Of a DNA stretch of 64,000 nt, positions 24,885 to 48,236 are shown piece after piece. The DNA is from an uncultured Chloroflexia bacterium (lineage in GTDB: Bacteria > Chloroflexota > Limnocylindria > Limnocylindrales > CSP1-4). The stretch is from NCBI GenBank assembly GCA_963748625.1, contig CAVVJT010000010.1, forward strand, positions 1,312,001 through 1,376,000. The letters are read 5' to 3'. A program made the position numbers and the translations under genes. The notes below the pieces were generated by a model that saw only the letters and a list, made by a program, of their open reading frames with translations, had not been told where the DNA came from and did no database searches. The number at the start of each line of letters is the position of its first letter. Position 1 is the stretch's first letter.

Positions 24885-24990
24885 CCTCGCCCCGGCGTCA
24901 AGCCTGCGCCTCGCCCGGCCGTCCAGCCTGCGCCTCGCCCGGCCGTCCAGCCTGCGACTCGCCCCGGCCGTCCAGCCTGCGACTCGCCCC
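24885..24990 (+). repeat. About 24-bp tandem repeat, 4 copies (cctcgcccggccgtccagcctgcg)
   Basis: Directly visible; runs into the left TIR at 24985. Confidence 0.85.
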
Positions 24991-25095
24991 ACGTGTGGGC
25001 CATTTCCCGAGGTTCTGAGCGTGGTCCGGGCATGGAAGTCGGGGTTTGCCACGCAGACCGTGCGTGAGCGACGCGGATTCGCCCCCCACAAGCTC

Positions 25096-43653: not shown

Positions 43654-45357
43654 ATGACCGCACAGGCGAGGAAGCGGCGCGACACCGGCGTGGTGGCCGG
43701 CCTGGCGCAGTTGCGCGGCTACGACCGGTCCTGGTTCCGCGCCGACCTGCTCGCCGGTGTCACCGTGACGGCGTATCTCGTGCCGCAGTGCCTGGCCTAC
43801 GCGGACCTCGCCGGCGTGCCGCCCGTGACCGGCTTGTGGGTGGCCGTGGTCGCCATGGTCACCTACTTCTTCCTGGGCACGTCCCGCCAGCTGTCGGTGG
43901 GGCCGGAGTCCGCGACGGCGATCATGGTGGCAGCCGCCGTGGCGCCACTCGCGGGCGGCGACGAGGCGCGCTGGATCGCGCTGGCGGCGGGCCTCGCCGT
44001 GATGGTGGGCATCATCTGCATCGGTGCCTGGGTCCTGCGCCTGGGGTTCGTGGCGGACCTGCTCTCCCAGCCGATCCTGCTGGGCTATATGGCCGGCGTC
44101 GCGGTGATCATGATCGCCTCGCAGCTCGGGACGATCACCGGGATCACGCTCACGACCGGCCAGCCGATCTCGCGCGTGCTCGAGCTTGCCCCGCGCCTCG
44201 ACGAGGTCAATTGGGCGTCCACCGCGCTGGGTTTCGCCGTCGTCGTGTTCCTGGTCGTCCTGCGCCGGATCAAGCCACTCGCGCCGGGGACGCTCATCGT
44301 GGTGGTGCTGGCGGGCGTCGCCGTCTGGGCGCTCGCCCTCGAGCAGCTGGGCGTGAAGATCGTGGGGCCGGTTCCGACCAGCCTGCCGGCGCCGTCGCTG
44401 CCCGCGATCTCACTTGCGGACATCTCCGCCCTGCTCGGTTCTGCGATGGCCATCACGTTCGTGGCGTACTCGGACGTGGCGCTCACCGGCCGGGCGTTCG
44501 CGGCCCGCACCGGCGAGACGATCGATCCCAACCGCGAGTTCCTGGCCATGGGCGTGGGCAATGTCGTGGCCGGCCTGACCGGCGGCTTCGCGCTGTCGGC
44601 CTCCGGCTCACGCACGGCGATCATCGACGCGATGCGCGCGCGCAGCCAGGTCGTCGGCCTGGTGGCGTCTGCGGCGGTGATCTTCGTGGTGCTCGCCGTG
44701 CCGGGCCTGATCGCGTACATCCCGCGGGCGGCCCTGGGCGGCATCGTGATCTACGCCGCGCTCCGACTGATCGACGTCCATGGTCTCGTGAAGCTGGCGA
44801 AGTTCCGCACGTCCGAGTTCGCGCTGGCGGTGATCGCGTTCACGGGCGTGATCGTGTTCGACGTGCTGGCCGGAATCCTGGTGGCCGTCGGGCTGTCCGT
44901 GGTGGAGCTGTTCGCGCGGGTGGCCCGGCCGCCGGCCGCCGTGCTGGGGCGCGTGCCGGGCCTCGCGGGTCTGCACAACGTGGAGGACTACCCGGACGCC
45001 CAGACGATCCCTGGCCTGCTGGTCTTCCGCTACGACGCGCCACTGTGCTTCGCCAACGGGCAGGACTTCCGGACCAAGGCGCTCGCGGCCGTGGATGACC
45101 AGCCGGAGCCCGTGCAGTGGTTCCTGCTCAATGCCGAGGCAATCGTTGAGCTGGACATGACCGCCGCCGAGGCGTTCCAGCAGCTGGTGAACGACCTGCG
45201 CAAACGCCAGATCGTGTTCTCGATGGCCCGGGTGAAGCAGGACCTGCGGGTGCAGCTGCTGCGGGGCGGGCTGCTCGACGTGATCGACGAGGAGCACATC
45301 TACCCGACCCTGCCCGTCGCGGTCGAGGGTTTCGAGCGCTGGAGCGAGCGCCGGTAG
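43654..45357 (+). CDS. SulP family anion transporter with STAS domain
   Basis: DLLAGVTV...PQCLAYA, GTSRQLSVGP, SGSRT and STAS FRYDAPLCFAN. Confidence 0.95.
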   Translation: MTAQARKRRDTGVVAGLAQLRGYDRSWFRADLLAGVTVTAYLVPQCLAYADLAGVPPVTGLWVAVVAMVTYFFLGTSRQLSVGPESATAIMVAAAVAPLAGGDEARWIALAAGLAVMVGIICIGAWVLRLGFVADLLSQPILLGYMAGVAVIMIASQLGTITGITLTTGQPISRVLELAPRLDEVNWASTALGFAVVVFLVVLRRIKPLAPGTLIVVVLAGVAVWALALEQLGVKIVGPVPTSLPAPSLPAISLADISALLGSAMAITFVAYSDVALTGRAFAARTGETIDPNREFLAMGVGNVVAGLTGGFALSASGSRTAIIDAMRARSQVVGLVASAAVIFVVLAVPGLIAYIPRAALGGIVIYAALRLIDVHGLVKLAKFRTSEFALAVIAFTGVIVFDVLAGILVAVGLSVVELFARVARPPAAVLGRVPGLAGLHNVEDYPDAQTIPGLLVFRYDAPLCFANGQDFRTKALAAVDDQPEPVQWFLLNAEAIVELDMTAAEAFQQLVNDLRKRQIVFSMARVKQDLRVQLLRGGLLDVIDEEHIYPTLPVAVEGFERWSERR

Positions 45358-45400
45358 GCGGCTGATCCGGGGGCTGACGCGGCGGCTGATCGGGCTGGGC

Positions 45401-45524
45401 GCGACCCCTGACACCACTGGGAGTCACCAGCGCCTCCTCTGTGCACGGCCCGTGCATCAAACCCGGACCTCCCTGCACGCGCCCTGCAGACGCCACCCGC
45501 TCCTGACTCCTGGCCGGGTCAACG
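45401..45524. repeat. Left arm of long imperfect inverted repeat (two REP-like palindromes)
   Basis: Reverse complement of 46499-46620, with exact blocks ggagtcaccagcgcc (15 bp) and ccacccgctcctgactcc (18 bp). Confidence 0.85.
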
Positions 45525-45578
45525 TGTCGGCATCGGTGGATCCGGGATAAGCCGCACATAAGGGGCACGGCCTACAAC

Positions 45579-46397
45579 GTGTCGATGGCAACCCTCCGCA
45601 TCTCGCTCCTGTCGGTGTCGTTCGGTGCCGGCCTCGCGCCGCTGATCAAGGAGGCGCGGACTCTAACCGGCTGGACGCAGCGCGAGCTCGCGGACAACGC
45701 GAAAGTCTCGCAGGCACAGGTCTGGCGCCTGGAGTCGGCGCAGCCGGGCGCCCTCGACCTGGCCCGGGTCGAGCGCGTGCTCAGGGCCCTGGGCATCCGC
45801 GCGACCCTGGAGCTCGATAGCCGCCACCTCGTCGACCGCGAGCGGCAGCGCGATGCCCTGCACGTCCGGATCACCGGCTTCCTCGCCCGTCGGTTCCGGC
45901 GCCACGGCTGGCTGACCGCGACCGAGCTGCTGATCCCGGGCGAGCACGGCCCGCGCGGCTGGATCGACCTCGTCGCCTTCCGGGAGATCGACGAGACGCT
46001 GATCGTGGAGGAGACGAAGACGGAGCTGCCCGACATCGGCGCCCTGCAGCGGAGCCTCGCGTTCTACGAGCGGATGGCCTGGCGAGCGGTCGAGGTGCTC
46101 GGGTGGCGGCCGCGGCGGATCGTCGTGCTGTGTGTCGTGCTCGACTCGGACGCGGTCGCCGACCGGATCGTCGGTGCTCGCAGCCTCCTGCTCGATGCGT
46201 TCCCGGCCGACGTCGGCGCCACCCTGCGCTGGATCGAGGATCCCGCGGCGCCCGTTCCGACCGACTGGTGCCTGGCCGGGGTGGATCCGATGTCGAGGAG
46301 CCGGGCCTGGATCCGCGGGACCGACCTCCGCCGCCGCCGGCGCCGGCCGGTGTACCGGGACTACGCCGATGCGATGGCACGGATCGGGCGGCGCTGA
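45579..46397 (+). CDS. HTH-XRE + PD-(D/E)XK nuclease-like protein
   Basis: Cro/C1 HTH IKEARTLTGWTQRELADNAKVSQAQVWRLE; restriction-endonuclease-like motif ATE...GWIDLVA...IVEETKTE. Confidence 0.8.
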   Translation: MSMATLRISLLSVSFGAGLAPLIKEARTLTGWTQRELADNAKVSQAQVWRLESAQPGALDLARVERVLRALGIRATLELDSRHLVDRERQRDALHVRITGFLARRFRRHGWLTATELLIPGEHGPRGWIDLVAFREIDETLIVEETKTELPDIGALQRSLAFYERMAWRAVEVLGWRPRRIVVLCVVLDSDAVADRIVGARSLLLDAFPADVGATLRWIEDPAAPVPTDWCLAGVDPMSRSRAWIRGTDLRRRRRRPVYRDYADAMARIGRR

Positions 46398-46398
46398 T

Positions 46399-46469
46399 CC
46401 GCTGGCCGGGCCGCGAGCCGGCTGGCCCGCCGCGAGCCCGCTGGCCGGGCCGCGAGCCGGCTGGCCCGC
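46399..46469 (+). repeat. About 31-bp direct duplication (ccgctggccgggccgcgagccggctggcccgc)
   Basis: Two copies between the HTH-nuclease stop and the right repeat arm. Confidence 0.8.
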
Positions 46470-46498
46470 TCCTGCCCCCTGACCCGCTCCCGACCCCC

Positions 46499-46620
46499 CG
46501 CTGACTCGGCCCGGAGTCAGGAGCGGGTGGTCCGTGCGGGCTGCGTGCAGCAAAGTCGGAGTTGGCGGTACGGACCGTGCGGGCATGGGGCGCTGGTGAC
46601 TCCAGGCGGAGTCGGGGCGC
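46499..46620. repeat. Right arm of long imperfect inverted repeat (two REP-like palindromes)
   Basis: ctgactcggcccggagtcag ... gtgactccaggcggagtcgg; mirror of 45401-45524. Confidence 0.85.
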
Positions 46621-46691
46621 CTGAGCGCCTGGGCCGGGACCGGGGACCGTCGCCTGGGCCAGGGCGCCTGGGCGAGGGCACCCGACAGCGC

Positions 46692-48218
46692 CTACTCCGG
46701 GCCCAGGTCGTACCCCATCCAGCGCGGCAGGCGAACCAGCCAGCGCAGCGGCGGCGGCACGTAGCCGGCCTCGTCGTCGCGCTGCTCCTTCGCCACGATC
46801 GACTCCCGGATCACGCGCGCGCCCAAGAAGCGGAACGGCTCGGGCGGGAAGCGCCGCGCGCGGTGCCCGACCAGCGGCAGGCGGGCGGCGGGATCGTCGA
46901 GCCTCACCTGCGCCAGCGCCGCCAGCACCTGGCCGCCCAGCCAGGACGGCCCGACACCCGTCCCGCTATAGCCGTGCCCGTAGTGGATCCGTCCGCCCTC
47001 GAGCGTCCCGAACGAGGGCAGGTGGTTGGGCGCGATGTCGATGGGACCACCCCAGGCATCCACCAGCCGCACGTCGTCGAGCATCGGGAAGTACCGCCGG
47101 AATCCGCGCGCGGCCAGCATCGCGGACCCAGGATCGTGCTCCACCCAGCGCCCCAGCCGCCCGCCGTAGCCCGCGCGGCCGCCACCGCCGCCGAACGCGA
47201 TCCGCCCGTCATGCGTGGTCCGGAAGTAGTGGTTCGTGAAGCGGCAGTCCGTGATCCCCTGGCCGCCCGTCCAGCCGATCTCCGCGAGGCGCTCCGGGAT
47301 CGGCTCGGTGATGACCATGTACGACGACCACGTGATCATCCGCGACCCGAAGCCCGCCCCCGGCCAGCCGGCGGCCCAGGCGTTGACGGCCAGCACAGCA
47401 TGCCCGGCCCGGATGGCCGGCCCCAGGGAGGTCGTCGCCCGCACGCCGTCGCCGTCGAGCCGCAGGTCGGCAACCCGCGTGTGCTCGTGGATGACGACGC
47501 CCCGGTCCAGCAGCACCTGGCGCAGGCCACGGGCGAGCCGGGCCGGCTGAACCATCGCATCACGGGGGATGAGCATGCCGCCGCGCAGGACCGGGGAGGC
47601 GCAGATCCGCTGGACCTCCTCGCGCGAGAGGGCGCGGTACCTGTCCGCCACGCCCAGGTCCGCGGCGAGCTCCAGGATCGATGCCCATGCGTCGTCCTGG
47701 ACCGGTGACCCGCTCGCGACGACCATCCCGCCTGCCTGCCACTTCGCATCCACCCCGTGACGCCCGGCCCACTCCCCGATCCAGCCGGCCACGCCGTCGA
47801 GCGCCATGGCCGCCTCGAGGCCCCGCTCCGGCCCGAAGTTCGCGACCAGCGCCGGGAGGTAGTCCCACCACGAGGTGAGGAACCCGCCGTTGCGGCCGCT
47901 TGCACCGCCGCCCACGATGTCGGCCTCGAGGATGACGACCCGCAGGTCCGGTGCCTGCTCGGTCAGCCACCACGCGGTCCACAGGCCGGTGAAGCCGCCG
48001 CCCACGATGACCACATCGGCCACGCCATCCCCGCCAGGCGGCGGACAGACGACGCCCGGATCGTCCGCGAGGGCGTCCCGCAGCCACCAGCCACGTTGCT
48101 CGCCCGGCCGGAGCACGGCCATGTCACGGGCCACCACGCGCCGGATGCGGGCCCGATCCCCGGGCCGCCGGTTCGGGTCCGGCGCAGGCGCGTGACGCGG
48201 CTTGGTGGCGGCCGGCAT
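46692..48218 (-). CDS. FAD-dependent oxidoreductase (DAO/PuuB-like)
   Basis: DVVIVGGGFTGLWTA, GASGRNGG, AWGGPID and GYSGTGVG. Start is 48218 or 48122. Confidence 0.9.
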   Translation of the reverse strand: MPAATKPRHAPAPDPNRRPGDRARIRRVVARDMAVLRPGEQRGWWLRDALADDPGVVCPPPGGDGVADVVIVGGGFTGLWTAWWLTEQAPDLRVVILEADIVGGGASGRNGGFLTSWWDYLPALVANFGPERGLEAAMALDGVAGWIGEWAGRHGVDAKWQAGGMVVASGSPVQDDAWASILELAADLGVADRYRALSREEVQRICASPVLRGGMLIPRDAMVQPARLARGLRQVLLDRGVVIHEHTRVADLRLDGDGVRATTSLGPAIRAGHAVLAVNAWAAGWPGAGFGSRMITWSSYMVITEPIPERLAEIGWTGGQGITDCRFTNHYFRTTHDGRIAFGGGGGRAGYGGRLGRWVEHDPGSAMLAARGFRRYFPMLDDVRLVDAWGGPIDIAPNHLPSFGTLEGGRIHYGHGYSGTGVGPSWLGGQVLAALAQVRLDDPAARLPLVGHRARRFPPEPFRFLGARVIRESIVAKEQRDDEAGYVPPPLRWLVRLPRWMGYDLGPE

Positions 48219-48236
48219 GGGCAACCCCTCGTGCGC

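Follow-up and report, generated by a model that had tools for sequence, protein, structure and literature searches.

P0 is a 272-residue protein that combines an XRE-type helix-turn-helix (HTH) domain with a predicted PD-(D/E)XK nuclease fold. It is encoded in a 64,000-nt stretch of DNA (G000:C10:1312001-1376000, hereafter the window) from a soil bacterium of the Chloroflexota/Limnocylindrales, whose metagenome-assembled genome (MAG), G000, comprises 4.63 Mb in 10 contigs at 71% GC and is 98.3% complete. The P0 gene (45579-46397 of the window, forward strand, stop codon included) stands between two copies of a dispersed palindromic element, and its relatives adjoin element families of their own. 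There is very little doubt that the P0 gene family is associated with cognate palindromic elements of ~120-130 bp. The locus is read here, with a probability of roughly 0.55, as one instance of a conserved nuclease/element partnership in Limnocylindrales-type Chloroflexota, which would be worked by a protein dimer that reads and cuts palindromes.

The P0 locus and its family A elements

The P0 gene is enclosed by an imperfect inverted repeat (45406-45524 / 46499-46617) with 119-nt arms that are 74% complementary without gaps and lie 974 nt apart. Of 41 inverted pairs between 45000 and 47000, no other comes close to it in length, and it exceeds chance because the arm belongs to a repeat family with 28 full copies. 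The family, termed family A, was recovered from G000 by iterated nhmmer search seeded with both arms, which also gave four partial matches; being quasi-palindromic itself, the element produces matches on both strands at most sites. The arms are two separate copies of this dispersed ~120-nt element. The left copy spans 45404-45526 on the forward strand (nhmmer 82.5 bits, E 5.6e-23; covariance model R1, described below, 89.5 bits), and the right copy is inverted relative to it at 46495-46620 on the reverse strand (nhmmer 90.6 bits, E 1.8e-25; R1 94.4 bits).

An earlier note on this DNA, made from the letters alone, had described imperfect inverted arms of ~120 bp with REP-like (repetitive extragenic palindromic) repeats bracketing the gene. 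That description holds, down to the exact blocks of 18 bp (45493-45510 / 46513-46530) and 15 bp (45420-45434 / 46589-46603), and the genome-wide count of arm and palindrome that it proposed as a check returned the 28 full copies. Its picture of the arms as the two ends of one element does not hold, as each arm is a complete dispersed copy. The arms were also considered as a known RNA family and rejected, since an Rfam scan of 45000-47000 at E ≤ 1 gave zero matches. A consensus scan of 45300-46750 found no promoter or terminator and is uninformative in a Chloroflexota genome of 71% GC.

Aligned family A copies carry the palindrome TGACTCC-N4-GGAGTCA at the 5′ end, the same palindrome again at the 3′ end, GC-rich inner inverted segments, and a central AAC..GA..TT motif. 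The short palindrome reported at both ends of each arm (TGACTCC-N4/5-GGAGTCA) is present at all four sites. In the left element, the 5′ palindrome TGACACC-ACTG-GGAGTCA (45409-45426) is a candidate HTH-dimer site. The 3′ palindrome TGACTCC-TGGCC-GGGTCA (45504-45521), which ends 58 nt ahead of the P0 start codon, is a candidate autoregulation operator; both assignments follow the sequence and the family consensus. The right element ends in TGACTCG-GCCC-GGAGTCA (46502-46519) and TGACTCC-AGGC-GGAGTCG (46597-46614), as read from the sequence. Pairwise identity within family A averages 57.5% and reaches 79% at most. The two arms that flank P0 share 69% identity; each is the first- or second-best partner of the other, which makes them only marginally closer to each other than to other copies. 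Judged by its divergence, family A, including both arms, is old.

P0 is the product of the sole plausible open reading frame (ORF) between the arms (third-position GC content 0.93). That a single enclosed gene encodes an XRE HTH and a nuclease motif had been proposed from the letters and is now backed by the ORF, Pfam, homolog conservation, and fold. The HTH domain (residues 19-74; 45633-45800, forward strand) matches Pfam HTH_3 with 30.1 bits (cut-off 23) and HTH_31 with 29.6 bits (cut-off 27), which places P0 in the XRE family above curated cut-offs. The closest structures to the N-terminal domain are HipB and restriction-modification (R-M) controller proteins (1y7y, 2b5a, 8ezt, 4yg1; Z 9.7-10.4). 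NCBIfam returns sub-threshold HipB/Y4mF-type matches for the HTH (TIGR03070, 36.3 bits against a cut-off of 71.65), and PADLOC returns HTH-level matches only, with capH at E 1e-8 over residues 20-100. A HipB-type type II antitoxin was considered and rejected, given a family score below cut-off and neighbours that are a SulP permease and a DAO oxidoreductase, with no toxin gene adjacent.

The C-terminal domain (residues ~93-248; 45855-46322, forward strand) has no family match in Pfam or NCBIfam, and in PADLOC it matches no known defence family. Its catalytic motif is intact: in an alignment of 24 homologs that includes a distant subfamily, H95, E116, D130, and E145 are invariant, and K147 is nearly so (at least 90%). 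In an AlphaFold (AF2) model with a pLDDT of 91, the conserved residues lie on an alpha-beta-beta-beta-alpha-beta core (elements H93-108, E112-119, E127-135, E140-147, H153-174, and E180-188). Residues ~94-248 match the XisH-like protein 2okf (Z 8.9), AF1548 (1y88, Z 8.2), the NucS C-domain (2vld, Z 7.9), and the Can2 nuclease domain (8bao, Z 7.7), scores that fall in a range rated common by the structure-search tool. In the assignment, the motif counts for as much as the fold match. With the core fold predicted and the E...D...(D/E)xK motif present, the model places this domain in the PD-(D/E)XK superfamily. Foldseek adds weak matches of P0 to R2 restriction-like endonuclease and SduA.

Related proteins in databases carry little annotation. 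ESM Atlas returns only Chloroflexota 'hypothetical protein' clusters for the C-terminal domain, and database relatives are annotated merely as XRE/HTH, the named ones coming from 'Candidatus Limnocylindrales', 'Chloroflexia', or Chloroflexota MAGs. Proteins 81-83% identical to P0 exist. A metagenome scan for close P0 orthologs yielded distant HTH matches only.

A P0 homodimer is supported by modelling. The model reaches an ipSAE of 0.52, against 0.00 for the best control, with its interface at residues 68-85, and the runs share at least 97% of contacts at a partner pLDDT of at least 85. Of proteins solved as one-chain pairs, 20 of 30 reach the same dimer mark; of those solved as single chains, 1 of 23 does. 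The predicted dimer may reflect likeness to solved HipB-like HTH dimers.

Cognate element families of paralogs and homologs

The association is family-specific within the host genome. By tblastn, G000 encodes three close P0 paralogs and two distant ones at ~30% identity, and further element families were found by comparing the upstream and downstream flanks of paralogs and then searching the genome. P1 (C10:449626-450429, 46% identity to P0) is bracketed on both sides, at 57 and 176 nt from the gene, by family C, which has CCCCA-N4-TGGGG termini and 31 full copies of ~120 nt. P3 (C7:636164-636944, 61% identity) has a family B copy 116 nt downstream and a second 1.1 kb upstream, past an FdhD-like ORF; family B has CCCCACGTGGGG termini and, with 48 full copies of ~120 nt, is the most abundant family. 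P3 contains a frameshift near residue 212, which marks either a pseudogene or an assembly error. P2 (C7:661366-662133, 49% identity) lies between two diverged elements of small families with one and three copies. The pairing of P1 with family C, P3 with family B, and P2 with diverged elements answers another check that had been set beforehand, namely that each homolog be flanked by its own repeat family. An HMM (hidden Markov model) search places an element within 400 nt of five of eight paralog flanks, against ~0.1 expected by chance for 107 elements in 4.63 Mb. The ORF at C3:206405-207238, between a second close family A pair, was tried as a paralog and rejected as PhzF-like.

The elements are largely intergenic, with 97 of the 107 family A, B, and C copies outside crude ORFs. 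By these gene calls, convergent spacers hold 42 of the 97 intergenic copies, compared with 422 of 2641 spacers genome-wide, and the elements lie preferentially at gene 3′ ends.

The association extends to other genomes. Of the 24 genomes sampled from the genus, 23 encode the protein family, mostly more than once; it was found in none of 16 genomes from a sister family with small genomes. A profile search of genome contigs with a narrower alignment (A4) gave 34 homolog loci, all from Chloroflexota MAGs. Covariance model R1 detects an element within ~400 nt of the gene at 24 of the 34 and on both sides at 13; without the five training loci, the counts are 19 and 8 of 29. It has zero matches in 34 control loci (129.6 kb), which consist of 8 distant-homolog loci, 17 other loci of genus genomes, and 9 metagenome loci. 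The expectation that homologs in other MAGs would be flanked by repeats is thereby borne out. Flank-to-flank BLAST of 22 close-homolog loci detects repeats of 94-137 nt at eight (five direct, three inverted) and short repeats at four, and all eight distant-homolog loci lack flanking repeats beyond one 16-nt match.

Gene and repeats are inherited together, as syntenic orthologous units in two related species (L059/L060 and L036/L038) share 82-86% DNA identity. One element family is represented only by its two gene-flanking copies in G016 and by 10 copies in G008, while another has three copies in each genome. A search of 40 further genomes in the genus recovered neither family A nor family B, in keeping with the absence there of a close P0 ortholog (best 57% identity).

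The element families form a superfamily with a shared architecture and variable ends. Alignment A3 contains 65 copies: 53 of the 107 full copies from G000 (28/28 of family A, 15/48 of family B, and 10/31 of family C) and six flanking pairs from other genomes. All 65 align over their whole length. The families share length, central motif, and complementary ends and differ in the 16-20-bp palindrome at each end. In a long-hairpin structure defined by column-pair count, which pairs the 5′ with the 3′ end and includes a central helix, 72% of cells are paired and 275 show changes on both sides; with the partner column slid, the corresponding figures are 32-42% and 85-127. Complementarity between the ends of an element is thus preserved although the sequence varies from family to family. 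It fits either a hairpin/cruciform or a symmetric protein site at both ends, which the data cannot separate. Single-strand folding energies (-0.24 to -0.28 kcal/mol per nt) are modestly below those of mononucleotide shuffles (-0.20 to -0.23), so hairpin formation as such is not established, and RNAalifold on the family alignments and on A3 gives almost no consensus structure.

The recognition helix of the HTH appears to track the type of terminal palindrome, a suggestive pattern drawn from sequence comparison. An SQA-x-(V/I)W helix accompanies GACTC-N6-GAGTC or TGACTCC-N4-GGAGTCA in P0, L131, L132, L137, L138, L146, and L160. A TSHT helix accompanies TGGCAC-N6-GTGCCA in L140 and L147, two loci of separate MAGs, and Cys-containing helices accompany GATC-type palindromes in L142, L143, and L151.

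Family B shows several further arrangements. Eleven copies lie on one strand within 60 kb (C7:601454-659988), a stretch that also contains P3; the ORFs between the copies include PIN-like and IS30-like ones, and the layout recalls cassette arrays. Integron attC sites were considered for these eleven co-oriented copies with toxin-antitoxin (TA) cassettes between them and set aside on layout, as the elements are not confined to arrays. A solo family B element with CCCCACGTGGGG-type termini lies at 24978-25089 of the window, 20 kb from the P0 unit; the synteny of relatives breaks at this copy, so it yields no empty-site information. Two family B copies form part of a tandem duplication with a unit of ~227 nt (C10:581155-581501).

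Insertion of the unit and explanations for the partnership

The neighbours of the P0 unit converge on it. To the left is a SulP permease (43654-45357, forward strand; family match to Sulfate_transp and STAS), and to the right is a DAO-family FAD oxidoreductase (46692-48224, reverse strand; family match). The intergenic region between them (45358-46691) measures 1334 nt and holds repeat, gene, repeat, and tandem duplications, whereas the same junction measures 0-70 nt in seven relatives (G056, G017, G022, G001, G050, G018, and G012). Unrelated inserts occupy it elsewhere, with ORFs of 179, 543, and 62 aa in G007 (L173, C46:39900-43100) and one ORF of ~490-540 aa at each of two loci in G051 (L174, L175); the junction is a hot spot for accessory DNA. 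Together, the empty junctions and the other inserts indicate that the whole repeat-gene-repeat unit entered a variable site in this lineage specifically. Empty sulP-oxidoreductase sites in relatives were among the predictions of the earlier note, and none of the three outcomes that it had named as refuting (homologs lacking flanking repeats, a syntenic single-copy gene, or repeats occurring nowhere else) was observed.

Solo copies of the elements are polymorphic in presence and absence: at 2/2 tested sites, the element is present in G008 and absent from the orthologous G016 site. Young family C copies share either the ~130-nt element alone, with sharp ends, or the element and up to ~110 nt of flank. 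The small tandem duplications reported beside the P0 unit are present at 45357-45395 (a 12-nt unit x3.2, directly left of the left element), 46401-46497 (a 20-nt unit x3.3 and an 18-nt unit x2.1, between the P0 stop codon and the right element), and 46651-46679 (a 14-nt unit x2.1, beyond the right element). Within 46401-46497, the final unit partly duplicates the terminal motif of the right element. Short tandem duplications also lie beside the G008 solo copy (locus L187) and the young family C copies. Their units are 12-20 nt long, and some repeat the terminal motif of the element; they may be a footprint of end processing.

In the proposed mechanism, P0 would dimerise through its HTH domain, and the dimer would read the terminal palindromes of cognate elements, with reading of the copy upstream of its own gene providing autoregulation. 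The nuclease domain would cut elements at or near the palindromes. Break repair or copying would then maintain and spread the family, as is thought to occur for REPINs (REP doublets) and their REP-associated tyrosine transposases (RAYTs). DNA binding by the protein is probable, the odds on cleavage of the elements are about even, and nuclease-driven dispersal is a tentative proposal with odds a little below that. The checks favour a REP/RAYT-like layout around a non-HUH enzyme, as the earlier note had it; that the nuclease drives dispersal is what we infer. By a bolder extension, which is rather doubtful, HTH-PD-(D/E)XK proteins would be the dedicated maintenance/replication enzymes of a second, independently evolved REPIN-like class. 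A dimer would cut at the double-stranded terminal palindromes, repair would copy the element into new intergenic sites, and specificity and termini would co-diversify into separate lineages within one genome, with at least four gene/family pairs here.

Several observations weigh against a partnership worked by a palindrome-cutting dimer. The most abundant family, B, adjoins the frameshifted paralog P3. Unrelated genes can likewise stand between two elements of one family, as do a PIN gene, an IS30-like gene, a PhzF-like gene, and an RHH+PIN pair, so bracketing is not peculiar to the P0 gene family. Family A is old (57.5% mean identity), and thus P0's own family bears no sign of recent activity. 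No R1 element is present at E ≤ 0.01 at 10/34 homolog loci, and 10/22 close-homolog loci give no flank-to-flank BLAST match. R1 found elements in 0/5 genomes that lack close homologs; this whole-genome search was weak, as it was confined to 150 candidates per genome and missed a known G014 element, and its result is not counted as evidence. Junctions and target-site duplications are unreadable in the alignments of young copies and in those of filled and empty sites, where the spacers are too diverged. The correlation between helix and palindrome is suggestive only because it is confounded by shared descent, and L134 and L144 carry the SQATIW helix with other palindromes.

The alternative that survives best, although it is unlikely, makes P0 a regulator or architectural protein. 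P0 would bind the palindromes while the elements spread by other means (an enzyme in trans, recombination, or slippage), and the nuclease fold would have another role or serve as a ligand/DNA clamp. The likeness of the HTH to HipB and R-M controllers, which are autoregulators on palindromic operators, suits this explanation, as do the position of the proximal palindrome 58 nt upstream of the P0 start codon and the enrichment of elements at gene 3′ ends (42/97 in convergent spacers against 422/2641). The termini and central motif of family A have also been kept while the rest drifted to 57% identity, in the manner of maintained sites. However, the retention of E116, D130, E145, and nearly of K147 in 24 homologs, including the distant subfamily, argues for catalysis. 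Nor did another candidate for mobilising the elements turn up: their ends are shared by no transposase gene, and the Y1/RAYT transposase (PF01797) was not found in G000 by a search that was positive in 6 of 14 known genomes used as a control.

Less probable still is a composite cassette, in which repeat-gene-repeat moves as a whole and solo elements are mostly recombination leftovers comparable to solo long terminal repeats. Insertion of the whole unit relative to seven empty junctions is what such a cassette would produce, and flanking copies in direct orientation, from which a solo element could be left, occur at P1, L035, L036, L038, L039, and L056. At P0, L059, and L060, however, the flanking copies are inverted, and recombination between them would invert the interval rather than delete it. 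The 28-48 solo copies per family against one gene each, the synteny rather than movement of orthologous units between species, and the lack of any gene remnant in the youngest family C copies likewise count against it.

Passive co-location of a TA/defence-like accessory gene and unrelated repeats resembling miniature inverted-repeat transposable elements (MITEs), gathered in variable junctions with no functional link, would suit a junction that holds other genes in G007 and G051, elements that bracket TA modules and cluster (eleven family B copies, C7:601-660 kb), and an HTH with weak matches to HipB/CapH types, but it is very improbable: it leaves unexplained the same family on both flanks, the different families for different paralogs, and the 24/34 against 0/34 loci, and it sits poorly with gene-flanking copies that persist without any other genomic copy, with a distant subfamily of the same protein that lacks such repeats at 8/8 loci, and with the absence of an adjacent partner toxin gene.

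Relation to known systems

The known system closest in layout comprises REP/REPIN elements and RAYT genes (TnpA-REP, Y1 HUH; Nunvar 2010, PMC2817692; Bertels & Rainey 2011, PMC3116915). REP units measure 20-40 nt and carry a conserved GTAG or CGTC tetranucleotide at one end, according to Di Nocera 2013 (PMC3733652). As in REP/RAYT, copies of a cognate short palindromic repeat stand on both sides of an enzyme gene in the P0 system, and tens of others lie between genes; each paralog has a cognate family, and the gene is vertically inherited in a syntenic place. As in a REPIN, the element consists of two palindromic ends around a spacer. Unlike in REP/RAYT, the enzyme joins an XRE HTH to a PD-(D/E)XK fold, and P0 matches HTH families only, with no Y1 HUH match. 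The element is also longer (~120-130 nt) and has a conserved central motif, and the host phylum is Chloroflexota. The terminal palindrome consensus of family A, by reading only, has no GTAG or CGTC tag. Recognition here would probably involve double-stranded palindromes bound by an HTH dimer, unlike the single-stranded hairpins of REP/RAYT. In the literature covered, full-text searches turned up REP/RAYT work only, with no HTH-PD-(D/E)XK counterpart and no description of repeats in Limnocylindria. By analogy, the system looks like an undescribed counterpart of REP/RAYT built on a different enzyme.

Bacterial MITEs and long palindromic intergenic repeats include ERIC/IRU (~127 bp) and Correia/NEMIS. 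MITEs derive from, and share ends with, insertion sequences (IS) that encode a DDE transposase. The elements described here resemble MITEs and ERIC in being ~120-bp imperfect palindromes with complementary ends that are intergenic and often lie at gene 3′ ends, and the terminal inverted repeats typical of MITEs are found in all families. Unlike MITEs, they have an HTH-nuclease gene as their only associated gene, and this gene is flanked by whole elements instead of being contained in one. At P0, where the flanking copies are complete, there is no parent IS that has their ends and encodes a transposase; the search did not extend to all IS families.

P0 also shares features with R-M C proteins and HipB-type XRE repressors, namely the N-terminal fold, a predicted dimer, and a palindrome upstream of its own gene. 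Unlike in those proteins, the HTH is fused to a nuclease, no methyltransferase or HipA gene is adjacent, and the palindromes occur on ~100 dispersed elements. The nuclease domain is like 2okf (XisH-like Ava_3312), AF1548, NucS, and Can2 in its predicted alpha-beta-beta-beta-alpha-beta core and its E...D...ExK motif and differs from them in domain architecture and genomic context.

REPIN-RAYT is the standard example of a repeat population that has long persisted in company with a single domesticated enzyme gene and, to our knowledge, involves HUH/Y1 transposases only so far. If the partnership proposed here is real, such an arrangement would have evolved more than once, in this case with an unrelated restriction-enzyme-like nuclease and an HTH reader. 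It would then offer a tractable case of co-diversifying DNA-binding specificity and repeat termini, with several cognate pairs in one genome and variants of recognition helix and palindrome that can be read from sequence, and would account for a large part of the intergenic repeats of an abundant uncultured soil/freshwater lineage. HTH-nuclease proteins may also be a source of programmable-looking, palindrome-specific nucleases.

G000 contains two further repeat types of related interest. A family with ATCCCCGTGGGGAT-type termini has four copies of the same architecture (C10:797818-797950, C5:25796-25917, C10:1086418-1086550, and C7:334768-334876) and no cognate gene evident beside them. A 65-nt direct repeat with 97% identity between its copies flanks the distant paralog P5 (~29% identity to P0, C10:414325-415423); this repeat is of a different kind (CCCGATGCGCGCTGGCC...) and has few other copies.

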